Shown piece after piece: positions 2,903 to 58,172 of a stretch of 64,000 nucleotides of DNA; the first letter of the stretch is position 1, and every line of letters starts with the position of its first letter. The notes beneath the pieces are model-generated. The model searched no databases. It was given only the letters and a program-made list of their open reading frames with translations, and was not told the DNA's origin. The stretch lies in the IMG/VR virus record IMGVR_UViG_3300029915_000005; one strand, written 5' to 3'. The DNA comes from a virus. The translations under genes and the position numbers were made by a program.

Positions 2903-3991
2903 TTATTTATTCAAATTAGCTCTTCCTTTAATATATCCAGCCACTTTATATTTTTCCCACTCTTCTTTTTTAATAGTTTTGCTTATATTTTTCTCAACAT
3001 TAGAAATCCACATATAATCACGAGTATTACTTAGCAAATGACCTTTTATATACCCCATTTGATTGTATAGAATAAAGTCTACTGGAAAAATTCTTTTAAC
3101 ATCTTTAATAATTAAATTGGTTATCCATATTTTTCCAATTGTTTTAGACTTAATTATTCCTCTAATCCATCCCAAATTTTTATATTTTAACCAATCACAT
3201 TTTTTAATTCTAATTTCTTGTTTCAACTTTAAATTTTTAATAAAAATAGTATCTTTCCATAAATTTGATTTTTCTTTTTTCAAATCATCAGACATTTTAT
3301 ACATCATTCCTTTTGAATATCCTGACTTTAAATACTTTTCTAAATCATTTTTAGAAATTAATATTTCTTCTGATCCATTATTAACCCATATTTTTCCAAT
3401 ATTTTCTTTTGCATTTTTACGTAATGTTTGAAATACTTTTTCTGGAGATCCTTTAATATATCCTTTCAATTCATATGAAGAAAGTTCTTTAATATTAATC
3501 ATTTTTCTATTTCCAGTTAAGGAGTTATAAATATGAATTTGGTCTTTCTTATTAGAAATCATTCCTTTCTTAAATCCCAAATTTTCAAATTTAGAAAAAT
3601 CAATTGGTAATATTTGTTTTTGACAATCTCCATTATTAATCCAGATTGTTCCTACGCTACTTCTAAAAGACTTAGAACCTACATGCAAATTATACCAAGA
3701 ATCATTATTGATTGCTTTAACTCTATAAAGAAATTTACTTTCATGCTCAACACATTTTTTCTTAGAATCAAAAATTCTACAAATCTTGATATCAAATATA
3801 TCTTTTCCTTCATTATCAATAATGTTTTTAATTATTTTGCTTGACGTAAAATAAATAGTCCATAAATCCTCAGGTTTGCATCCTTTTGCAAATCTGCATC
3901 CATAATATTTCTTTTTAGTTATTTTGTGAGTAATACAATATGTAAAAGGAGTTCTATCAATTGCAGTAAAAGTTGATGGATAAATATTCAT
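2903..3991 (-). CDS. GIY-YIG-type free-standing homing endonuclease with repeated WI(N/T)NG DNA-binding modules
   Basis: FTY-x9-YYGCR, YFTSS, E..FL, WYN; repeated IWINNG...GFKKG units. Confidence 0.75.
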   Translation of the reverse strand: MNIYPSTFTAIDRTPFTYCITHKITKKKYYGCRFAKGCKPEDLWTIYFTSSKIIKNIIDNEGKDIFDIKICRIFDSKKKCVEHESKFLYRVKAINNDSWYNLHVGSKSFRSSVGTIWINNGDCQKQILPIDFSKFENLGFKKGMISNKKDQIHIYNSLTGNRKMINIKELSSYELKGYIKGSPEKVFQTLRKNAKENIGKIWVNNGSEEILISKNDLEKYLKSGYSKGMMYKMSDDLKKEKSNLWKDTIFIKNLKLKQEIRIKKCDWLKYKNLGWIRGIIKSKTIGKIWITNLIIKDVKRIFPVDFILYNQMGYIKGHLLSNTRDYMWISNVEKNISKTIKKEEWEKYKVAGYIKGRANLNK

Positions 3992-4058
3992 GGCTGATTG
4001 CCTCCTGTGGCATTAGAGTGGTTAGAGATGGGAGTCTCGTGAACCACATTATTATTTA
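3992..4058 (-). promoter_or_regulatory. late promoter plus conserved structured 5' leader, copy 1
   Basis: TAAATA ataat GTGGTT cac GAGA ctccca TCTC t AACCAC tctaa TGCC acagga GGCA atcagcc ATG. Confidence 0.8.
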
Positions 4059-4078
4059 TCTTGATAAATATCTGTATC

Positions 4079-5041
4079 ATGAGAATATTTGAATTATTAA
4101 TGGAAGGCGGAAATGTTTTTGCAGGAAAGACTGCTTCTATTAAACGCGAAAATATTGAACCAACCATATCTGCCTATTTCAAAGAATTGAAAAAATTGTT
4201 TCCAAAGAAAGCTAATATTTTCAACTCGCAACATTTTGTACCACTTGGATCAGTTGGGAAGAAAGCAGTATCTGGCGATATAGACTTAGGAATAAGTGCA
4301 TCAGATATTTTAGATAAAACAATGAGTGATGCATCCATCTCTTTATGGGGTATTGATCCACTTGCTGTTCATAATGAAGCTCTATCTTTGGAAAAGAGAG
4401 CTAGAACAAGTGGACCTGAACGATTGAGAATGAAGGCTTTTTTAAAAATTCTTACTGCATACATTAATTCTAAAAATTCTGATTTATCATGTAATGAGAA
4501 GAAAGTTACTGATGGGAATATTTTTGGTTTGTTTCCACAGTTTGATGAATCAAGAAATAATTTAGGAATTGGAGTTCAAATCGATTGGATGATTGGAGAT
4601 TTAAACTGGCTTAAATTTTCTTATTTTTCATCTGCATATCCAGAAGGGTCAAATGTAAAAGGGCTACATGGCAGCGAACTATTGGCATCTGCTTTTCAAG
4701 TTGCAAATTTAATGTTTAGTCATATAAATGGTATCAAAGATAAAACAACAAATAAGTATATTTCTCATGATCCGCAAGAAGCATTAAATATTTTAGGAGA
4801 TCGTTTAGGAGTTATAATTCCCAGATCAGAAGTTGAAGATTATTACAGGCTTCATTCTTTATTGAAAAGCAAAATGCGTCCAGAAGATTATAATACATTA
4901 TTAAATGTTTATTTCAAAATCCTAGATTCAACTCACGGAGATATTCCTGATAACTTACAAAAAGAATGGTTAAAAAGAAAAAATTCTTTGGGATTAACTG
5001 GAAAATTTCTCCCAGATAATTCTGCTCTGAAGAATAAATAA
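4079..5041 (+). CDS. Pol-beta-superfamily nucleotidyltransferase with capsid-tag-like N-terminus
   Basis: MRIFELLME start after TAAATA; LGS-x6-SGDIDL and VQIDWM catalytic Asp pattern. Confidence 0.7.
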   Translation: MRIFELLMEGGNVFAGKTASIKRENIEPTISAYFKELKKLFPKKANIFNSQHFVPLGSVGKKAVSGDIDLGISASDILDKTMSDASISLWGIDPLAVHNEALSLEKRARTSGPERLRMKAFLKILTAYINSKNSDLSCNEKKVTDGNIFGLFPQFDESRNNLGIGVQIDWMIGDLNWLKFSYFSSAYPEGSNVKGLHGSELLASAFQVANLMFSHINGIKDKTTNKYISHDPQEALNILGDRLGVIIPRSEVEDYYRLHSLLKSKMRPEDYNTLLNVYFKILDSTHGDIPDNLQKEWLKRKNSLGLTGKFLPDNSALKNK

Positions 5042-5045
5042 TTTC

Positions 5046-5074
5046 TTGACAAATTATATTAAATTTGTTATCAT
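5046..5074 (+). promoter_or_regulatory. sigma70-type promoter, leaderless arrangement
   Basis: TTGACA-17-TATCAT-6 nt-ATG(5081), no SD. Confidence 0.7.
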
Positions 5075-5080
5075 TTTTAT

Positions 5081-5920
5081 ATGAATATAAAATTATTCCA
5101 AATTTGTTATGCTCCTGAACACTTCACTAATATAAAAGTTCCTTTTGAAGTTTGGGATAATTCTGAAAATCTTACTCCCAAACTTTGTGAGTTTCCAATA
5201 TTCAATAAAGTTTATGATTATGCGACTGAAAATAATATAGACTATTGGGGAGTATTGAGTCCAAAGTTTGAATACAAAGCTGGAATATCAGGCCAACAAT
5301 TTTACGATTGGATTGAAAGGGAAATTACTAATTCACCAGCCAAACCAGATGTTCTTTTTATAAATCCAACTCCAATCAATGAAAGTTTATCCTCAAGCGT
5401 AATTAGCCAAGGAGAAAACTGCCATCCTGGTTTGATGAATTTAATGCAACGAGTTTTACAACGTATGAATATTAATTTGATATTAGCCACTTTATGGAAT
5501 TATGATACTTTTGCATTATGCAATTATTTCGTTGGTAATAAGGTTTTTTGGACTAAATATTTAAATTTTGCAAACCAATTTATTGCTGAAGCTTCATCTG
5601 ATCCAAATGATTATAAAATGATGTTTGAAACTGGGGCCAATTACGGGCTTAACAGCGCATTGCCTTACTATACGTTTGTGTTAGAAAGATTATTCAGTCT
5701 GTTTCTTATAATATATCCCGAAATTAATCATTATGAAGCCAAATATTCCAGAGAGCAACTCTTCAAAAAAACAAAATTACCTTTGGAAATTGTTGATGAA
5801 ATTCGAGCACTTTCATATATAAAGCATCTTGGAATTAATGATCCAGAACTACTCAGGCACTGGATATTTTTAAGAAATAAATTTGCTCAACAAAATCCAA
5901 ACATATTCAATGTGGAGTAA
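5081..5920 (+). CDS. hypothetical protein, possibly glycosyltransferase-like
   Basis: 279-aa ORF; YWGVLS, CNYFVG, FVLERLF motifs; function weakly inferred. Confidence 0.45.
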   Translation: MNIKLFQICYAPEHFTNIKVPFEVWDNSENLTPKLCEFPIFNKVYDYATENNIDYWGVLSPKFEYKAGISGQQFYDWIEREITNSPAKPDVLFINPTPINESLSSSVISQGENCHPGLMNLMQRVLQRMNINLILATLWNYDTFALCNYFVGNKVFWTKYLNFANQFIAEASSDPNDYKMMFETGANYGLNSALPYYTFVLERLFSLFLIIYPEINHYEAKYSREQLFKKTKLPLEIVDEIRALSYIKHLGINDPELLRHWIFLRNKFAQQNPNIFNVE

Positions 5921-5921
5921 T

Positions 5922-6638
5922 ATGAAACCATTATTTATTATTAGCAGTGCTATTAGAACAAAACACGGAAAATTTTCTGCTACAGAACGATTACAGCAAA
6001 CTATTGAGACTTTAAAAAGTATTAGAGATAGAATTCCAGATGCAAAAATTTTAGTTAATGAAAGTTCAGGAGAGCAATCAATAACTCAAGAAGAAAATAA
6101 TAAATTATCACGTTATGCAGACTGGATTGAAAACTATTCTAGTGATCCGCAGGTTCAAGAAATATATAAAAGCACAAACAATTGGGATATTGTAAAAAAT
6201 TATACTGAAATGTTGGTTACAGCGAAATCTTTATACATTTTAGAAACATATTCTCCAGAAAGTTCTCGAATTTTTAAACTAAGTGGAAGATATCAGTTAA
6301 CGAATGATTTTGATTTAAATAAATATGATGATCCGAATTTAACTAGTAAATATATATTTTCTGCCAGAAGAAATAGCCAATTTCCCACTAATGTAACAAA
6401 TGGATTAACTCATCAACTAATGAGTAGATTGTGGTCATGGCCAACCAATAAATCTGATTTGGTATTGGCAAGATATAAAATAATGTTGGAAGATTTTACC
6501 AACTCACTAAATCAAAATAACTATCGTGATATTGAACATTTATTATTCAAATATTTTGAAGGCCCAAATCTATTTGAATTTCCCATTATTGGTGTCACTG
6601 GCCAACTCGGTCCTACTGCTCGACAAGTATCAGATTAA
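5922..6638 (+). CDS. hypothetical protein, possibly GT-A-like
   Basis: SD GGAG before ATG 5922; FIISSAI, ERLQQT..T..SI, FKLSGRY. Confidence 0.45.
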   Translation: MKPLFIISSAIRTKHGKFSATERLQQTIETLKSIRDRIPDAKILVNESSGEQSITQEENNKLSRYADWIENYSSDPQVQEIYKSTNNWDIVKNYTEMLVTAKSLYILETYSPESSRIFKLSGRYQLTNDFDLNKYDDPNLTSKYIFSARRNSQFPTNVTNGLTHQLMSRLWSWPTNKSDLVLARYKIMLEDFTNSLNQNNYRDIEHLLFKYFEGPNLFEFPIIGVTGQLGPTARQVSD

Positions 6639-6646
6639 GGAGAATT

Positions 6647-7444
6647 ATGAGAAATAATTACTGGCGTTGTTCTAAATTCGCAGATTTTATTCGTGGATCA
6701 AAAACACTTCATGCATTATCTGGCAAAGAATGGAAGGAATGGCATCAAAAAGAAAAAACAATACATCCATTTCGTTATTGGCTTGCAGAAGAGGCTTTGG
6801 GTTCTATCCAGAATTTTATTAATTGGCCATTGGATAAATATCATAACATTAAGTGGTATTTAAATAATCGTTTCATATCACAATCTCATCAATTAACTGC
6901 TAGTGCCAAACATATTAAGCGCGGGCAATGGTGCGATATTACTGAAAGAATACTTCCTTGCTTATTTGATACACTAGTTGATTATGTAGAAATTGAACTG
7001 GCTCATATTCAATGTTGGAATAATCGAAAATATAAATGGAAAAACGGCCGATGCCAAAAAGCTGGACGTGACAATTTGTATTGGCAAGAATCTTTGGTAT
7101 ATAATGAAGATAGTGGAGTTTATCCTGGAGATAAATTGTATGGGAAATTAACAAAACAAGCAATTAATGCCAAAGAAATACACGACTTGTATGTATGGTG
7201 GACTGAAATTTATTCTAACAGGCTTGAACCCATGGATGAATCTGGTTGGTCTGAATTTTGTTCCAGAAAAAGAACTTCTGGTGATGGATTTATGGATTTT
7301 CTGGATGCAGATGAAACTACTGAACATAGAAAAGAATCTAAAAGAATTTTATCGAAACTAAATAAACTTGAAAAGAAATATCATAATGAAGACACAAATA
7401 TGATGATTAGATTAATCAAAGTGCGTGATTCTTTGTGGACCTAG
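6647..7444 (+). CDS. hypothetical Trp-rich phage protein
   Basis: 265-aa ORF with SD AAGGAG. Confidence 0.7.
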   Translation: MRNNYWRCSKFADFIRGSKTLHALSGKEWKEWHQKEKTIHPFRYWLAEEALGSIQNFINWPLDKYHNIKWYLNNRFISQSHQLTASAKHIKRGQWCDITERILPCLFDTLVDYVEIELAHIQCWNNRKYKWKNGRCQKAGRDNLYWQESLVYNEDSGVYPGDKLYGKLTKQAINAKEIHDLYVWWTEIYSNRLEPMDESGWSEFCSRKRTSGDGFMDFLDADETTEHRKESKRILSKLNKLEKKYHNEDTNMMIRLIKVRDSLWT

Positions 7445-7446
7445 AA

Positions 7447-7510
7447 TACTAATAACACATAAAAAATAGGAGCCAATTAATTGGCTCCTATTTTTTATGT
7501 GTTATTAGTA
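7447..7510. terminator. perfect 64-bp palindrome, bidirectional terminator
   Basis: 7447-7478 is the exact reverse complement of 7479-7510; A6/T6 tracts; lies between convergent genes. Confidence 0.8.
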
Positions 7511-8254
7511 ATCTCCAAAAATTTTAAGAACTTCAGACACAACTGGGTGTCTTTCTATATCTTTATGGTCAAATTCAATACTAGCTATATATTTCGCTTC
7601 ACCATATTTCTCTAACAGATTTTTAAATCTTAATAATCCATTTTCTCCAGTTCTCTTATCTGTCTGATCATTATCTCCTGTAACGACCAACTTTGACCCA
7701 TCACAAAGGCGCGTAAATACAGCCTTTATCTGGTTTTGTGTTGCATTTTGGCTTTCATCAACAATTACAAAAGTATTTCTAATATTTCTCCCTCTCATAA
7801 AACCAATTGGAGTTATTTCAATAGTATTATTTTCCAACAAATTATCAATTTCCTTTTGGCTATAATACTCTGATAAAACATCAAATAATGGAATTAACCA
7901 TGGAGCTAATTTTTCTTTTAAATCTCCAGGTAAAAAACCCACGCTTTCATCGTCCACTCCAACCAAAGGTCGGCATAAAATAATTTTTTCAACAGTTTTT
8001 TCTGATAATGCTTTAATAGCAGCGAGCATTGCAAGATATGTTTTGCCAGTTCCAGCACACCCAGAAGCCAAAACAATCATTTTTTCTACATCTAATAAAT
8101 ATTCCAAATACTCTTCTTGGTGTACATTTCTGGGTATAATACGAACTGCTTTTCGTATTCCTGTTTTTGTAGTATAATTTGCTTTTGCTGGTTGACTTTT
8201 CGTTGCGGTTAAATTTGATTCTTGTGGAGGGCGCTGTTTTTTAAGTCTCGACAT
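7505..8254 (-). CDS. phoH: PhoH-family ATPase
   Basis: GCAGTGKT, VGFLPGDL.EK, FMRGR, VDESQN, TGD..Q.D, RHP.V; SD AGGAGA before ATG 8254. Confidence 0.93.
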   Translation of the reverse strand: MSRLKKQRPPQESNLTATKSQPAKANYTTKTGIRKAVRIIPRNVHQEEYLEYLLDVEKMIVLASGCAGTGKTYLAMLAAIKALSEKTVEKIILCRPLVGVDDESVGFLPGDLKEKLAPWLIPLFDVLSEYYSQKEIDNLLENNTIEITPIGFMRGRNIRNTFVIVDESQNATQNQIKAVFTRLCDGSKLVVTGDNDQTDKRTGENGLLRFKNLLEKYGEAKYIASIEFDHKDIERHPVVSEVLKIFGDY

Positions 8255-8364
8255 GCAGTATCTCCTATAGTAGTTCATTAGTATTTATTGGATTAAAAAA
8301 TTTATTCCATATGATAAATACTTAGATGAGAATAGGAAAGCTAAATACTAATAGGTGATTCCAC

Positions 8365-8907
8365 ATGTCAGATATAAATATCGCAGCTATATTGGATAAT
8401 ATTAAGCAAGTTTCATTGTCTCCTTCAAGTATGGATATACTAAGAGAATTTGAAAGAGTTATTGATGAAAATGGTTGTTACGCTTTTCATCATTATAAAT
8501 CTTTAGAATTAGTAGAAGGACCAATTATATCTGCCTATAGAGTGAAATGCATTTTTATGAGTCCTCTCAAAAAAATGCCCGATCCTTCTGGAGCAGCAAG
8601 ATTGCTTCCATATGGAGTTAAAGTTAGTTATAAAAAAGCTTGGTTGAAATATCCAATTAAATTAAAATCTGAAAATGATTTTAGAGCAGGTATAAAAAAG
8701 CCAAAGATTGCCAAAACAGAAGTTTGGCTGGTATATATCGATATGCCAAAATACTTAATAAAAAATATTACTAGTGGTAGTAAAGAAATCATGGATAAAG
8801 AAATGGATATGAATGATATAGACGATGCATATGAAGAGGGGCTGGACTCTTATCGCGGAATAAAACAAGGAGAGCAAAAGCAAGAAGAAGAACATCCAGG
8901 ATTTTAA
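8365..8907 (+). CDS. hypothetical protein (late)
   Basis: 180-aa ORF; TAAATA boxes and SD AGGTG upstream. Confidence 0.7.
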   Translation: MSDINIAAILDNIKQVSLSPSSMDILREFERVIDENGCYAFHHYKSLELVEGPIISAYRVKCIFMSPLKKMPDPSGAARLLPYGVKVSYKKAWLKYPIKLKSENDFRAGIKKPKIAKTEVWLVYIDMPKYLIKNITSGSKEIMDKEMDMNDIDDAYEEGLDSYRGIKQGEQKQEEEHPGF

Positions 8908-8909
8908 AT

Positions 8910-9854
8910 ATGAAGAAATTGACTTTAAAAGAATTCATTGATAAAGCAAATATAGTTCATAATTTTAAATATGATTACATTAATAGCATATATATAAACA
9001 GTCGCTCAAAAATTATAATAAATTGCAAAATATGTAAAGTAAAATTTGCTCAAAATTCAAACAAACATTTGAGTGGAAAAGGTTGCCCTGCTTGTGGAGG
9101 AACTAAAAAAATTACCACAAAAGAATTCATTGATAAAGCAAATATAGTTCATAATTTTAAATATGATTACAGCAAATCCATATATGCAAATAATCATACC
9201 AAAATCATAATAATTTGCAAAAAATGTCATAATGAATTTACTCAAACTCCTAATAGCCATTTAGCAGGATATGGTTGCAAAAATTGTTTTTTCTATTCTT
9301 TAACATATAATATTGCTGAATTCATTGATAAAGCAAATATAGTTCATAATTTTAAATATGATTACAGCAAATCCATATATGCAAATAATCATACCAAAAT
9401 CATAATAATTTGCAAAAAATGTCATAATGAATTTACTCAAACTCCCCACAATCATTTAGCAGCAAAAGGATGCGCACAATGCTGTGAATCAAAAGGAGAA
9501 AAAATAATTAGAAAATATTTACTTGAAAATAACATTAATTTTGAAAACCAATTTAAAATTTCAAAATGTAAAAATAAAAGAATGCTATCATTTGATTTTT
9601 CAATTTTTGAAGCAGAAAAATTAATTGGATTGATAGAATTTCAAGGAATGCAACATTATAAATCTATTAAAAGCTGGGATGGCGAAAAAGGATTTATTCA
9701 AAGAAAATTTAGAGACTCTATAAAATCCAATTTTTGCAGAGAAAACAATATTCCTCTACTTATTATTCCATATTGGAATAAAAATAATATAGAAGAAATA
9801 TTAAATAATTTTATCATAAATATTAATAGGTGCAAATATGACGAAACTATTTGA
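8910..9854 (+). CDS. putative homing endonuclease: three Zn-binding DUF723-like repeats plus PD-(D/E)xK/Vsr-like C-terminus
   Basis: FIDKANIVHNFKYDY...CxxC...HL.G.GCxxC x3; SKGE, FDF, IEFQG.QHY, RD.IK, LLIIPYW. Confidence 0.75.
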   Translation: MKKLTLKEFIDKANIVHNFKYDYINSIYINSRSKIIINCKICKVKFAQNSNKHLSGKGCPACGGTKKITTKEFIDKANIVHNFKYDYSKSIYANNHTKIIIICKKCHNEFTQTPNSHLAGYGCKNCFFYSLTYNIAEFIDKANIVHNFKYDYSKSIYANNHTKIIIICKKCHNEFTQTPHNHLAAKGCAQCCESKGEKIIRKYLLENNINFENQFKISKCKNKRMLSFDFSIFEAEKLIGLIEFQGMQHYKSIKSWDGEKGFIQRKFRDSIKSNFCRENNIPLLIIPYWNKNNIEEILNNFIININRCKYDETI

Positions 9855-18019: not shown

Positions 18020-19039
18020 TTAAATCCCACGATATATTTCAAGTAACAAACTATTATCAAAAAACTGAGATTCTATAGCACCAAGTTGTGACTGAACAAT
18101 TGTATCAACTGACTGAAAAGCTACATTACCTCCATGCGCCAAGTCTTCTGAAAAAGTACTTTTTTTCATTGATATTAATGACATTTCTCTTAACGAATAT
18201 TCATCTACTAAAGTTTCTTTCAAATATGCAGCTTCTTCATATGACACTTCTGAATCTAACATTAATTTTATATAACCATTGATTGGTAAATATAATGATG
18301 GATCAACAACCAATTGGCTAATTTTAACTATTCTGTATTTTGGAGCTTTCGGCCAAGAAATATATTTCGGAGTTCCTCCATATGGCAAAATCATCATTCC
18401 TCGATCATCATCTCCAGAATCCCCAAAATTATGAGGGAATGCATTTCCTACATAATGAATATTATTCTGCTGCTGTCTCATATGAAAATGGCCAGAATAA
18501 ACTTCTTCAATTTGTTTTAACTGATCAATTTTTATATCTCCAACATCTGGCATCGGCACTCGACTGTTCATCATAAATCCAGGTAATTCCAAATGTCCAA
18601 ATATATATTTTGATCTAATATTTTCTATTTTAGAAAAATCTTGCTCATTTAGCCAAGGTAGAAAAGTAACATCATTTTCAGTATATATATCATTAACAAT
18701 TTCAATATTCGGAATATGTTCTGCCCAAGCAATACTATGAATGGTTCTATTGGATTTATAGTAATTATCATGATTGCCAGTAAGAACAATTACTCTATCA
18801 AAAGCATCACTGAGCAATCTTAATATTTGTAATCCATAATTTAACGAAATTAAATTTACATTATTTCTATTATTAAAAAAATCTCCCAAAAATATACAAA
18901 TATCACAGTTTTCTTCGCTAGATTTTTGTATGAACCATTCAACAAAATTTTTACAATCTTCCAAATGAACAAGACTGTTTGTTTTTAGTCCAATATGCAA
19001 GTCAGTAAAAATTGCTGCTTTTTTAAATAAATTGGTCAT
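18020..19039 (-). CDS. gp47/SbcD/Mre11-like nuclease
   Basis: TDLH, GDFF, GNHD, GH, SGHFH metallophosphoesterase motifs; start MTNLFKK at 19039. Confidence 0.92.
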   Translation of the reverse strand: MTNLFKKAAIFTDLHIGLKTNSLVHLEDCKNFVEWFIQKSSEENCDICIFLGDFFNNRNNVNLISLNYGLQILRLLSDAFDRVIVLTGNHDNYYKSNRTIHSIAWAEHIPNIEIVNDIYTENDVTFLPWLNEQDFSKIENIRSKYIFGHLELPGFMMNSRVPMPDVGDIKIDQLKQIEEVYSGHFHMRQQQNNIHYVGNAFPHNFGDSGDDDRGMMILPYGGTPKYISWPKAPKYRIVKISQLVVDPSLYLPINGYIKLMLDSEVSYEEAAYLKETLVDEYSLREMSLISMKKSTFSEDLAHGGNVAFQSVDTIVQSQLGAIESQFFDNSLLLEIYRGI

Positions 19040-19045
19040 ACTTCG

Positions 19046-19074
19046 ATGATAAGTCCTTTGTAATGTTTTGTCAA
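19046..19074 (-). promoter_or_regulatory. sigma70-type promoter, leaderless arrangement for the gp47-like gene
   Basis: TTGACA-17-TATCAT-6 nt-ATG(19039). Confidence 0.7.
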
Positions 19075-19076
19075 GA

Positions 19077-19144
19077 TAAATAATGTCAGTCACGATGTTA
19101 GCCCATCCACTGACTCTAATCATTCATGGAGGAACAATCAGCTT
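19077..19144 (+). promoter_or_regulatory. late promoter plus conserved structured 5' leader, copy 2
   Basis: TAAATA at GTCAGT cac GATG ttagcc CATC c ACTGAC tctaa tcaTTC atggag GAAc aatcagctt ATG. Confidence 0.8.
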
Positions 19145-20092
19145 ATGCGTATTTATACAACTACTGATTTCATATTATCGTCTATTTCTAAACATAATAA
19201 TGAATTGCTTTCTTATGAAAAAACTATTTTCACTAGTAAAAACTCCAAAGTAATTATTACTTGCAAACTTCACGGCGATTTTGAGCAAATAGCAAAAATT
19301 CATTTGAAGGGGCATAGTTGCCCTCAGTGCGGCCATAATTATCGAGCCAATTTAAATAGATTAACCACTGAACATTTTATTAATGATGCTAATAAAATTC
19401 ATAATTTTTTCTTTTCATATGATAATTCTTTTTATATTGGTAGAAATCGCAAAATAACTATTACTTGTCCCTTTCATGGTGAGTTTAATCAAATGGCAGG
19501 AAATCATTTAAATGGCTTTGGGTGTCCCAGTTGTTCTGGTTGCAAAAAATTAACAACTGAAGAATTTGTAAGAAAAGCCAATATTAAACATAATTTTAAA
19601 TTTGATTATAGCAAGTCAATTTATATAGGTGCTCATTCAAAAGTTATTATAAGTTGCCCAGAACATGGTGAGTTTACTCAGAAACCAAATTGTCATTTAT
19701 CTGGCGCTGGCTGTCCTGTGTGTAAAGAATCAAAAGGAGAACGAGAAATTCGCATAAATCTTAAAGAATTAAAAATGAATTTCAAATACCAATACTCTTT
19801 TAAAAATTGCAAAAATATAAAACCACTGCCATTTGATTTTGCATTATTTAATAATAAAAAATTAATTGGTCTAATAGAATATCAAGGTATACAGCATTAT
19901 AAAGTAGGTTCTTTTGGTAGTAAATCAAAATCAATAGAAGATAAAATTAAAGATTTATATGAAATTCAATCTAGAGACTTAATTAAACTAAATTATTGCA
20001 AAACAAATAAAATTCCTCTTTTAATTATTCCTTATTGGAATCTGAGTAATATCAAAAATATTTTGTCTAATTATTCATATCCACCATCATAG
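19145..20092 (+). CDS. putative homing endonuclease (DUF723-like Zn repeats plus PD-(D/E)xK), inserted antisense between gp55- and gp47-like genes
   Basis: C..HG.F.Q...HL.G.GCP.C x3; SKGE, LPFDF, IEYQG.QHY, LLIIPYW. Confidence 0.78.
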   Translation: MRIYTTTDFILSSISKHNNELLSYEKTIFTSKNSKVIITCKLHGDFEQIAKIHLKGHSCPQCGHNYRANLNRLTTEHFINDANKIHNFFFSYDNSFYIGRNRKITITCPFHGEFNQMAGNHLNGFGCPSCSGCKKLTTEEFVRKANIKHNFKFDYSKSIYIGAHSKVIISCPEHGEFTQKPNCHLSGAGCPVCKESKGEREIRINLKELKMNFKYQYSFKNCKNIKPLPFDFALFNNKKLIGLIEYQGIQHYKVGSFGSKSKSIEDKIKDLYEIQSRDLIKLNYCKTNKIPLLIIPYWNLSNIKNILSNYSYPPS

Positions 20093-20967
20093 CTATTAAT
20101 ATCTTTATTTGTGCGCGAATAGCTGGGATTCATAGAATTTTTTATAAGCAGATCATCTCGTATCTGCTGATTTTTCTTTTCAATATTTAGTATTCGTAAG
20201 AAAGAGTTATGACATATAGATGTAAAAAATGCAAAAGGATTGGCTGATTTTGATTCATCGAACTGAAGGGCTACTTGGCAAAGTTGCATTACTGCCTGAC
20301 CTTTAAATTCTTCAACATAAGAATAATTTCTCCAGTTTCCTTTACTCGCATATTTGTCTGTTAATTTCATAATCATTCTTGCCAAAGTATCTGTAAAATA
20401 TCCGTGAGTCTTGCAAAATTGTCCATTATCCAAATCTCCAATCCAATGACTTTTAGCAACTACACGCAAAATATTATTTTCATCAAATCTATAATTGTAA
20501 AACGGAGGGAAATTAATTCTAATATGGTCAGCTTTTAAATTACTCAGCGGCACAATATTTAAACTTTCCAAATCATCATCTTCATCTTCTAAAACAAAAT
20601 CATCATTGTCAATTACACTATCAAAAAATCTATCTATACTTTTTCCTGGAACAATTTCAGCCAACATCTTTTCTGATTTAGAAATTTTCGGAGGAAGCAT
20701 TGGTATGTGTTCCCAAGTCATAATTCTAAAAACTAAATTAGTTGTTGGTAAGTTGTCTATATTTACTTTTTCTCCAGTTTCTCTTAAAATTCTGGCTACT
20801 TTGTTTTGCTTTGCTAAAATAATATTTTGATAATTTATTTCTTTAGTGTCAAATAATATTATATCATATTGGTGATCAGTTTCTTTGTTTAGAAATGAAC
20901 AAAACGTATTCTTTGAAAGATGAATTTCTTTCATTATATCTCTATTATTTAAATAATTCTGTTTGAT
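20071..20967 (-). CDS. gp55-like late-transcription sigma factor (probable AUC start at 20967)
   Basis: NYLNNRD upstream of ATG 20934; NWRNYSY.EE, FDE.KS.NPFAFFT....NSFLR....EKK.Q. Confidence 0.85.
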   Translation of the reverse strand: MKQNYLNNRDIMKEIHLSKNTFCSFLNKETDHQYDIILFDTKEINYQNIILAKQNKVARILRETGEKVNIDNLPTTNLVFRIMTWEHIPMLPPKISKSEKMLAEIVPGKSIDRFFDSVIDNDDFVLEDEDDDLESLNIVPLSNLKADHIRINFPPFYNYRFDENNILRVVAKSHWIGDLDNGQFCKTHGYFTDTLARMIMKLTDKYASKGNWRNYSYVEEFKGQAVMQLCQVALQFDESKSANPFAFFTSICHNSFLRILNIEKKNQQIRDDLLIKNSMNPSYSRTNKDINSYDGGYE

Positions 20968-56691: not shown

Positions 56692-57210
56692 ATGAAGATT
56701 AATGAAGTCATTATCGATAATGAAAATGGATTAGGAGGAGTTTCATATAATCAAGAAATTGATTATCTTGGTCTTAGAGTGCTAATGTATCCATCCACAT
56801 TTTTAAGCCTAGCATATTATAGAAGTCGAAACGATTTAGGAAATGTTGACTATATAAAAAATTATATTAAAAATGGTGGGACTATTGGCGCTCCATTCCT
56901 TCAAATAAGTATTCCTAATAGATGGGAGAATGATGATTATTCTATTCCATCCATAGTTATTGGTCATGAAGGAAGAAATAGAATGATGGCACTCGATGAA
57001 CTTCAAGATGAAGGATTAGAACCTGATGTGCCAGTTGAAACTCATTTATTGTTTTATAAATATAGAGCCAGGCATTTAAAACCAGAATGGATAATACAAT
57101 TAAATAAACAACTTTATAATCAAAATACAGAATATGAATATCATTCTGGAGAAGTGGCTTATACAGATAGCCCTATAACCAAAGGGCCATTGTTTAAGGT
57201 TGTAAATTAG
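56692..57210 (+). CDS. ParB/Srx-like protein, tagged N-terminus
   Basis: MKINEV; I.APFL, GHEGRNRM.AL, VPV. Confidence 0.55.
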   Translation: MKINEVIIDNENGLGGVSYNQEIDYLGLRVLMYPSTFLSLAYYRSRNDLGNVDYIKNYIKNGGTIGAPFLQISIPNRWENDDYSIPSIVIGHEGRNRMMALDELQDEGLEPDVPVETHLLFYKYRARHLKPEWIIQLNKQLYNQNTEYEYHSGEVAYTDSPITKGPLFKVVN

Positions 57211-58100
57211 ATATAAAAGATTTTACTAAATTATCAATATTTTCTTTATTCCAATATGGAATTATTAATAATGGAATATTATTAATATTACAATAATTAT
57301 ATTTTATATAATCATTTTTCTTAGTAGATTCAAAATATTTTTGAAAAATAGGTTCATAATGTTGTTTTCCTTGGTATTCAATTAATCCTATAATTTTATT
57401 ATTTTTAATAATCCCTATATCAAAAGGTAATGGATATTTATTTTTGCATAATGTAATTCTTATTTGTTCATCAAATTCTATTGGTAATGATTCCAACGTT
57501 TTTATAATTTTTAATTCTCCAGAACTTCTTTTACATTTTGGACATTTTCTTCCCATTAAGTGTTTATTTGGGCTTTGCCAAAAAGAGCCATGCTTCTTAC
57601 ATATTATTTCAACTTTTTGGCGTGAAGTTAAATAATTTACATTATCATAAATAAATTCATTTTTGTGTATGATAATAGCTTTTGTTATAAATTCTTTTGT
57701 ATTGCTTGTTTTTGTTTTAGAAATACTGTTAAATCCACATTGTGGACAACCAATTTTTTGTAAATGCACGCCGGGGGCTTGTTTAAAAATTCCATGTTCC
57801 TTACATTTTATATCCATTTTCTTTTTGGCGTTGTAATAAGTTTTAGAAATATAAGAATATTTAAAATTATGAATAATATTTGCAGAGTTAACAAATTCTG
57901 TAAATGTTCTATTAAATCCACAGCATTTTGGGCAACCATTTCCTGATAAATGTGCATGAGAAGATTGCAAAAATTCTCCATGAATTGGGCAAATAATTAT
58001 TAATTTGTTTTTTGCATTAATGTATATAGATTTACTATAATTATATTTAAAATTATGAATTTGATTTTGATATAAAATATGCAGTAGTATAAATAGTCAT
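57194..58100 (-). pseudogene. DUF723-repeat/PD-(D/E)xK endonuclease, frameshifted near codon 14
   Basis: ATG 58100 gives MTIYTTAYFISKSNS*; shifted frame resumes IHNFKYNYSKSIY... into ORF 57194..57970. Confidence 0.72.
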
Positions 58101-58172
58101 AGCTGAATGACCTCCAGTGGTCTTTAGAGCGAGTAGATGTCGAAATCATCGTGACTCGCATTTGTATTTATA
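58101..58172 (-). promoter_or_regulatory. late promoter plus conserved structured 5' leader, copy 3
   Basis: TATAAATA caaat GCGAGT cac GATG atttcga CATC t ACTCGC tctaa aGACC actgga GGTC attcagct ATG. Confidence 0.8.

Follow-up and report, generated by a model that had tools for sequence, protein, structure and literature searches.

The DNA analysed here is a stretch of 64,000 nucleotides from an IMG/VR virus record (IMGVR_UViG_3300029915_000005), and 'the window' refers throughout to this stretch at its full length. Its source is an uncultured jumbo phage from peat, and the 24 sequencing runs that hold the window are all DNA runs from peat metagenomes. Distant relatives of the phage are Salicola phage SCTP-2, PA5oct and Atu_ph07; a megablast search with positions 3000-9000 of the window against cultured phages returned no match. 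The window encodes a homologue of the late sigma factor gp55 along with gp46- and gp47-like genes. It also contains three copies of a short leader element, called the cassette below, each of which directly precedes a homing-endonuclease-like gene (Table 1).

The protein encoded behind copy 1 matches Pfam PF19835 (E = 1.8e-7) and PHROG 314, homing endonuclease. The copy 2 protein combines a DUF4379 treble-clef zinc finger with DUF723 and belongs to PHROG 559/9084, and a sequence search of the PDB with this protein found no relative. The preliminary description of this DNA had named a GIY-YIG gene behind copy 1 and DUF723/PD-(D/E)xK genes behind copies 2 and 3. The GIY-YIG and DUF723 assignments hold for copies 1 and 2, with PD-(D/E)xK a putative label for copies 2 and 3, and the copy 3 gene is a paralogue of the copy 2 gene (PHROG 559, E = 3.8e-52), but one that has been broken by a frameshift. 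Its ATG lies at 58100, the frame is lost after ~13 codons and a stop is reached 15 codons past the ATG, with likeness to copy 2 resuming in another frame from ~58042. A tblastn search of the copy 3 region with the copy 2 protein aligns residues 23-310 in frame 2 at 43% identity. The cassette of copy 3 is intact (55 bits) despite the frameshifted pseudogene behind it. The copy 2 gene, flanked by the gp55-like gene and the gp47-like gene, runs against a surrounding minus-strand block of gp55-like, gp47-like and gp46-like genes.

Table 1. Features of the three cassettes and related sites in the window; RNAs, hairpins and transcript starts are predictions
Copy	Feature	Position	Strand	Details
1	Cassette	3992-4058	-	
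1	GIY-YIG (SegE-type) homing endonuclease gene	2903..3991	-	362 aa
1	Forward late-promoter box	4053..4060	-	GATAAATA; 5 bases, then first G of P1 at 4047
1	Predicted start of nuclease mRNA	4047	-	First G of P1
1	Predicted antisense RNA, 3' hairpin	4018..4047	+	Basis: fold, covariation, strand-limited wobble pairs; gene-strand reading: P1, CAC bulge, P2, loop, Y
1	Predicted antisense RNA, 5' hairpin	3992..4017	+	Stem GCUGAU/AUUAG encloses P3; loop carries the ribosome-site complement; gene-strand reading: UCUAA, GGAGG hairpin, UCAGC
1	GGAGG (gene strand)	4001-4005	-	
1	Predicted start of antisense RNA	3992	+	
1	Backward-facing late box	3979..3986	+	GATAAATA; nuclease codons 2-4 (AAT ATT TAT)
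1	Minimum free energy	3992-4062		Antisense -21.3, sense -16.1 kcal/mol
2	Cassette	19077-19144	+	
2	Homing-endonuclease-like gene	19145..20092	+	315 aa
2	Forward late box	19075..19082	+	GATAAATA; 2 nt to P1
2	Predicted antisense body	19085..19144	-	3' hairpin 19085-19114, 5' hairpin 19115-19142
2	GGAGG (gene strand)	19128-19132	+	
2	Backward-facing late box	19150..19157	-	TATAAATA, exact match; codons 2-5 (CGT ATT TAT ACA)
2	Minimum free energy			Antisense -20.1, sense -12.5 kcal/mol
2	Flanking genes	18020-19039, 20071-20934	-	
2	Near-consensus sigma-70-type promoter	19046-19074	-	Before the gp47-like gene (likely ATG 19039)
3	Cassette	58101-58172	-	
3	Decayed paralogue of copy 2 nuclease gene	57194..58100	-	
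3	Forward late box	58165..58172	-	TATAAATA; 5 bases, then first G of P1 at 58159
3	Predicted antisense body	58101..58159	+	5' hairpin 58102-58128, 3' hairpin 58129-58159
3	GGAGG (gene strand)	58111-58115	-	
3	Backward-facing late box	58088..58095	+	TATAAATA, exact match; codons 2-5 (ACT ATT TAT ACT)
3	Minimum free energy			Antisense -21.7, sense -18.3 kcal/mol
	ORF starts with box-N5-ATG	2898, 25831, 29342, 41045, 48292, 52394, 56130, 56692, 58194	2898 on -, all others on +	

The elements of the cassette follow one another in the same order in all three copies. Read on the gene strand, a TAAATA box is followed by the stem P1, the trinucleotide CAC, the stem P2 with a loop of 6-7 nt, and one pyrimidine. 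The 3' half consists of TCTAA, a short hairpin with a GGAGG ribosome site, TCAGC and the ATG of the nuclease gene. The six base pairs of P1 differ in sequence between copies 1, 2 and 3 while the pairing is kept (GTGGTT/AACCAC, GTCAGT/ACTGAC and GCGAGT/ACTCGC), and the four base pairs of P2 read GAGA/TCTC, GATG/CATC and GATG/CATC. Sequence and alignment of the three copies thus bear out the shared architecture that had been described for these loci.

Simple patterns and a covariance model single out the same three sites. The pattern TCACGA-N14-24-CTCTAA has three matches in the 64 kb, namely the three copies, against 0.05 expected by chance, and TCTAA-N4-12-GGAG-N2-10-TCAGC likewise matches only these three, against an expectation of 0.00. 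When the window is searched with a covariance model and all filters are turned off, the three copies alone score 54-62 bits (copy 2, 54.1 bits; copy 3, 55.4 bits) and the next match reaches 10.6 bits. A search of the whole window against Rfam 15 at gathering scores gave no match, in keeping with the preliminary description, which could assign the element to no known family. With E values up to 10 allowed, the only hits at copy 1 were chance ones to models of eukaryotic snoRNAs and lncRNAs, at 9.6-13.3 bits where the thresholds are 37-90, and copy 2 had none. Literature searches found no description of the cassette motif, the only related items being T-even leader hairpins and the cyanophage RNA CfrI.

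The family was then collected from IMG/VR with two pattern scans, one requiring matches in both halves of the element and the other in the 3' half only, and the listed matches were taken. Among these, model R1 recognised 44 + 119 leaders in 220/231 IMG/VR loci, giving at least 163 further matches (138-140 distinct) in phage contigs beyond the window. The IMG/VR matches listed and the three copies of the window were pooled into a set of 140 distinct sequences, in which the invariance of CAGC, CTCTAA and GGAG is partly imposed by the search patterns that gathered the sample. Single genomes can hold many cassettes: 13 are found in a complete 360-kb phage with terminal repeats, and another 13 in a 333-kb phage that is 92% complete.

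The genes downstream of the cassettes are mixed. Among 129 distinct downstream proteins, NUMOD3 is present in 37, an HNH-type domain in ~31, GIY-YIG in ~14, a TnsA-like domain in two and Vsr in one. Judged by the genes that it precedes, the cassette travels independently of nuclease family, so the proposal that the module moves apart from its nuclease, first made from three loci, extends to a large family. Decayed stumps are headed by 8 of the 140 cassettes. Of 128 IMG/VR loci, 92 have an upstream ORF on the strand opposite the nuclease gene, and in the remaining 36 this ORF runs in the same direction as that gene.

Two further collections were searched. A scan of GTDB genomes produced 20 pattern matches, all on contigs of metagenome bins, and these give no trustworthy clue to the host. 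A blastn search with the leaders against 50,697 phage records retrieved one diverged copy only, which precedes EVB91_137 in Rhizobium phage RHph_I1_18 (MN988519.1, ~80,290-80,380; L232 2500-2600). Its 5' half reads AATAAATA-N5-GTAGTT-CGC-...-AACTAC; in its 3' half CCTAGAAAC replaces TCTAAC and is followed by GGGAGC, CCAGC and a start that reads TTG ACT ATT TAT. This copy is below the threshold of model R1, which does not reach an E value of 0.01 on the record. The divergent neighbour of the Rhizobium phage copy, annotated as 'NAD synthetase', is probably another GIY-YIG gene, since PHROG 447 bears that name.

The box at the 5' end of the cassette resembles a phage late promoter. The T4 late promoter, TATAAATA, is an 8-bp box that occupies positions -13 to -6, about one helical turn before the transcription start, and has no -35 element (Geiduschek and Kassavetis; PMC2988020). 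The cassette boxes are of the same type, and their presence together with a gp55 homologue in the window agrees with the link to late expression suggested in the preliminary description. Their family consensus, NATAAATA or NCTAAATA, differs from the T4 sequence, and it is from the likeness in type that we infer their activity here. Among 125 copies, the forward box is separated from P1 by 5 nt in 72, by 3 nt in 33 and by 4 nt in 12. In copy 2 a deletion makes the interval between forward box and P1 3 nt shorter than usual, which places the predicted start within P1. No TAAATA box precedes P1 in 15 of the 140 cassettes; several of these have GTCAA/TGACAA followed by an A-rich run (e.g. TGACAACAAGAAG), which may represent another type of promoter (flanks at L080 2841-2860 and 4350-4370, and upstream in L136, L130 and L182).

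Boxes of this type also occur elsewhere in the window, where at least nine long ORFs have an ATG exactly 5 nt past a NATAAATA box. These include ORFs of 4033, 1152, 1005 and 502 aa, and the ORF at 4079(+) has a spacing of N8. The sequence supports the NATAAATA box as the late promoter of this phage. Because the T4 rule puts the transcript start at the A of the ATG, the ordinary late mRNAs appear to be largely leaderless. The nuclease cassettes, in contrast, carry a 60-nt leader and a strong GGAGG. A near-consensus sigma-70-type promoter (TTGACA-17-TATCAT, 11/12 positions) precedes the gp47-like gene and would again yield a leaderless mRNA.

A second box faces backward from within the nuclease gene. 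The hexamer TATTTA is found in codons 2-4, exactly in 115 of the 140 copies and with one base changed in 21 more, and in 73 copies it lies 5 nt past CAGC. Its offset from the start codon can be 3, 4 or 5, so that it is read in three frames (as MYL, MIF or MxIY). As TATTTA occurs in all three frames, the conserved ATT TAT is not a peptide signal. Read on the opposite strand, it is (N)ATAAATA, a late box of T4 type. The spacing of this backward box equals that of the forward box, with box-N5-start on one side and box-N5-G in 72 of 125 copies on the other. At the level of sequence, the backward box therefore qualifies as a putative opposite-strand promoter inside the 5' end of the nuclease gene. 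From the position of the T4 box at -13 to -6, its RNA would start at (A)GCUG, 0-2 nt before the ATG. Two other upstream features were considered as fixed parts of the cassette and were rejected: TGTCAA, the reverse of TTGACA, accompanies just 26 of 140 cassettes, at distances that vary, and an outward late box is present in only 23 of 125.

The covariation of P1 and P2 was evaluated on the sample chosen by the 3' half only, which is hence unbiased for these stems. P1 and P2 together are 97% paired, with 260 cells changed on both sides. None of 500 shuffles reached their score, and sliding the partners lowers pairing to 26-51%. The claim of a covarying functional RNA, originally based on the three window copies, is in this way strengthened by the larger alignment.

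The set of 140 distinct copies indicates the strand on which the fold is selected. Counted over this set on the gene strand, P1 contains 822 Watson-Crick cells, 18 cells with A·C or C·A and none with G·T. The trinucleotide after P1, which had been taken for an invariant CAC bulge, is CAC in all three window copies, but the family as a whole has CRC and the middle base is paired. Its partner is the lone pyrimidine after P2, and the combinations are G-C in 76 copies, A-T in 30, A·C in 34 and G·T in none. The A·C state is found in 17 of 40 groups of differing P1 sequence and so must have arisen many times. For P1 and the middle pair taken together, the sole non-Watson-Crick cells are 52 A·C on the gene strand, and the reverse case is absent. 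Since each gene-strand A·C reads as G·U on the complementary strand, the selected fold is placed on the strand opposite the nuclease gene, where the standard pairs of P1 reach 100%. P2 and P3 show no clear wobble asymmetry and may have roles on both strands. P3, a stem of 3-4 bp that takes in just two or three bases at the 3' end of GGAG(G), covaries and is weak on the gene strand.

The 3' half of the cassette points the same way. Unguided RNAalifold on the antisense alignment A6 proposed a stem of GCUGA(U) with (G)UUAG, which are the reverse complements of UCAGC and UCUAA. This stem has one invariant G·U pair and two further pairs that vary, one between A-U (108), G·U (26), U-A (2) and G-C (1), and the other between U·G (98), C-G (22), U-A (9) and A-U (3). 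Its gene-strand version has two mismatches per five pairs, and the share of standard pairs is 99.1% on the antisense strand versus 61.2% on the gene strand. Over all 19 pairs of the fold, 97.4% of cells are standard on the antisense strand versus 85.9% on the gene strand, with 326 versus 26 G·U cells, and compensatory changes are seen in 16 of the 19 pairs of the antisense fold. The minimum free energy is lower on the antisense strand in 135 of 138 copies, with means of -19.1 versus -13.5 kcal/mol.

These results change the picture of the conserved bases. UCUAA and UCAGC had been regarded as unpaired invariants that, together with CAC, might form a binding pocket; the two segments instead pair with each other, on the antisense strand only, and what would have been the pocket becomes a G·U-bearing stem plus a single pair with a bulged G on either side. 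Two other structural candidates were also discarded. A K-turn at the CAC bulge does not fit, as the flanking pairs are Watson-Crick G-C and A-U and not sheared G·A, and the P2 loop was dropped as an anti-ribosome-site sequence, as CUCC occurs in copy 1 only and the loop is not conserved.

The elements are best accommodated by an antisense brake. Two convergent late promoters would probably produce, from one strand, the nuclease mRNA and, from the other, a ~70-nt two-hairpin cis-antisense RNA that covers the leader and the ribosome site. The unit would measure ~85 bp, with its two T4-type promoters facing each other ~75 bp apart. From the forward box (NATAAATA), the nuclease mRNA would begin with the first base of P1 and have a ~60-nt leader that carries a strong GGAG ribosome site. 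Transcription from the backward box would start at (A)GCUG and run back across the entire leader. By this layout the antisense transcript spans the whole leader, GGAG included, from its start 0-2 nt before the ATG.

In the 5' hairpin with which the predicted antisense RNA begins, GCUGA(U)/(G)UUAG forms the lower stem and the loop is complementary to the ribosome site. One linker A would join this hairpin to the 3' hairpin, which is composed of P1, one pair between two bulged G residues, and P2. The tail, A-Y-UUUUAUUU, is U-rich and is the reverse complement of the forward box; it resembles an intrinsic terminator and would end the RNA at ~65-75 nt. The tail consensus contains 5.9 U per first 10 nt, and the U tract begins 2 nt past the stem. 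The U-rich tail is, however, forced by the A-rich forward box, which leaves the 3' end of the antisense RNA uncertain. A simple terminator scan called none of the three window sites, a result of little weight because its rules demand an uninterrupted stem beside the loop.

Given its perfect complementarity to the leader and the ribosome site, the antisense RNA most likely pairs with the nuclease mRNA. Such pairing would occlude the ribosome site or make the duplex a target for cleavage, with lower translation or stability as the outcome, and the facing promoters would add mutual interference. The expected result is that a potentially harmful nuclease is kept low late in infection. A small antisense RNA that restrains the nuclease is accordingly regarded as the most likely product of the cassette, with both the firing of the two boxes and the repression itself being what we infer from this arrangement.

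The preliminary description had placed the function on the other strand, in a leader that senses a protein or ligand and acts as a translational switch. In a sense-strand version the hairpins would act within the nuclease mRNA, where P1/P2, as a 5'-terminal hairpin, would stabilise the late transcript and P3 would partly mask the ribosome site, and a protein or ligand might bind the conserved bases. The forward box does set the predicted mRNA start exactly at the P1 base, and P1, P2 and P3 form standard pairs on the gene strand too (97.9%, 96.7% and 92%). P3, moreover, spans the AG of GGAG and covaries, and leader hairpins are known in T-even nuclease genes (PMC3014915). The wobble asymmetry nevertheless speaks for the antisense strand, both in the 326 versus 26 G·U cells of the whole fold and in P1 and the middle pair, which have no G·U and 52 A·C cells on the gene strand. 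UCUAA and UCAGC are unpairable on the gene strand but make a 99% standard stem on the other, the frame-independent TATTTA box would be left unexplained, and no riboswitch or other Rfam family matches at gathering scores. A sense leader is considered unlikely, though the sense fold may still have some role.

The backward box and the folded RNA could alternatively serve as the promoter and 5' leader of the flanking gene, offsetting the effect of the insertion, an arrangement that is also thought improbable. It would suit the 92 of 128 loci, and likewise all three window copies, in which the upstream neighbour lies on the opposite strand, but not the other 36, whose neighbours share the direction of the nuclease gene. 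The neighbours of copies 1 and 3, at 4079 (N8) and 58194 (N5), have a late box of their own beside the ATG and so have no need of a cassette transcript, and the gp47-like neighbour of copy 2 has its sigma-70-type promoter. These promoters of the neighbours sit past the terminator-like hairpin. As no ribosome site precedes the neighbour ATGs, an RNA that read through would be translated poorly, and a two-hairpin fold with an anti-ribosome-site loop has no evident role in the leader of a neighbour.

The antisense reading has a wider variant. In addition to each nuclease gene having its own cognate antisense RNA, with the variable stems as its identity, the RNAs could act in trans across the genome or on a co-infecting phage. 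The conserved 5' hairpin (GCUGAU ... GUUAGAG), with its loop complementary to the ribosome site, would then act on the other 3-13 cassettes per genome. This extension is held to be rather doubtful; if true, homing endonucleases would be subject to a dimmer that works genome-wide, or to an immunity network, and we know of no RNA layer of control described between selfish nucleases.

Least probable is an element that works as DNA, in which a single-stranded fold of the kind known from integron attC sites and IS200/IS605 ends would be recognised for recombination, replication or cassette mobility: the strand-specific fold with conserved bulged bases, the stems that are free in sequence and kept in structure, and the placement before unrelated nuclease genes would all be compatible with it, but the promoter boxes flank the fold at the exact box-N5-start spacing that an RNA unit needs, no recombinase is associated, and the mobility of homing endonuclease genes relies on the repair of double-strand breaks, for which a site of this kind is not required.

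Large phages commonly carry homing endonucleases as selfish genes, and to our knowledge how their expression stays harmless is understood for only a few T-even examples. The cassette represents an RNA family missing from the catalogues, which runs to hundreds of copies, covaries with unusual clarity and accompanies at least four unrelated nuclease families. Within about 85 bp it would combine late promoters that face each other, an RNA fold under selection on the antisense strand, and an antisense tail that is at the same time the forward promoter. Should the antisense brake prove correct, this would be the first widespread antisense RNA family in T4-like and jumbo phages. It would offer a marker by which free-standing nuclease genes and late promoters could be annotated in metagenomic phages, as well as a small portable regulatory part. 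For the discovery of RNA motifs in general, the case illustrates that wobble-pair asymmetry can reverse the strand assignment of a 'leader' motif.

Three known systems are related to the cassette. The nuclease genes I-TevI, I-TevII, I-TevIII, mobE of Aeh1 and segB have a leader hairpin that hides the ribosome site (Gibb and Edgell, reviewed in PMC3014915). The 5' arm of this T-even hairpin contains a late promoter, so that late transcripts lose the mask (PMC3014915). Like these leaders, the cassette belongs to a homing-endonuclease gene and joins a late promoter to RNA structure at the ribosome site, presumably to keep the nuclease low and late. It differs in that its box lies upstream of the hairpin and not within a 5' arm, the ribosome site is not paired with P1, and every hairpin is predicted to remain in the late mRNA. 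Unlike the T-even leaders, the cassette also has a further late box that faces backward, and its selected fold is that of the opposite strand.

A parallel in the type of RNA is CfrI of cyanophage S-PM2, an antisense RNA of ~225 nt that lies opposite a nuclease gene and psbA (Millard et al. 2010, summarised in PMC2984593). Like the predicted cassette RNA, it is an antisense RNA of a T4-like phage that lies opposite a homing-endonuclease gene, and it is reported as co-expressed with the gene. CfrI links the nuclease gene to psbA and is known from a single locus, and PMC2984593 does not present it as a multi-copy portable cassette with a covarying fold. The cassette RNA is predicted at ~70 nt, covers the leader only, and occurs up to 13 times per genome and with unrelated nucleases.

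The closest system in logic is the RNA-OUT/RNA-IN pair of IS10/Tn10. An outward promoter in the first codons of a selfish gene there produces a small, stably folded antisense RNA, RNA-OUT, whose sequence is complementary to the mRNA over its 5' end and ribosome site and which keeps translation of that mRNA in check. The cassette displays the corresponding features, namely a promoter sequence on the opposite strand, a conserved antisense structure and complementarity over the ribosome site, although its function is deduced from sequence. RNA-OUT controls a transposase from a host sigma-70 promoter, whereas the cassette would control homing endonucleases from a phage late promoter. The cassette fold also differs in having two hairpins, and its terminator-like tail doubles as the forward promoter. 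On these grounds the cassette is provisionally classed as a new RNA family within the cis-antisense control of selfish genes, with RNA-OUT as its nearest counterpart.
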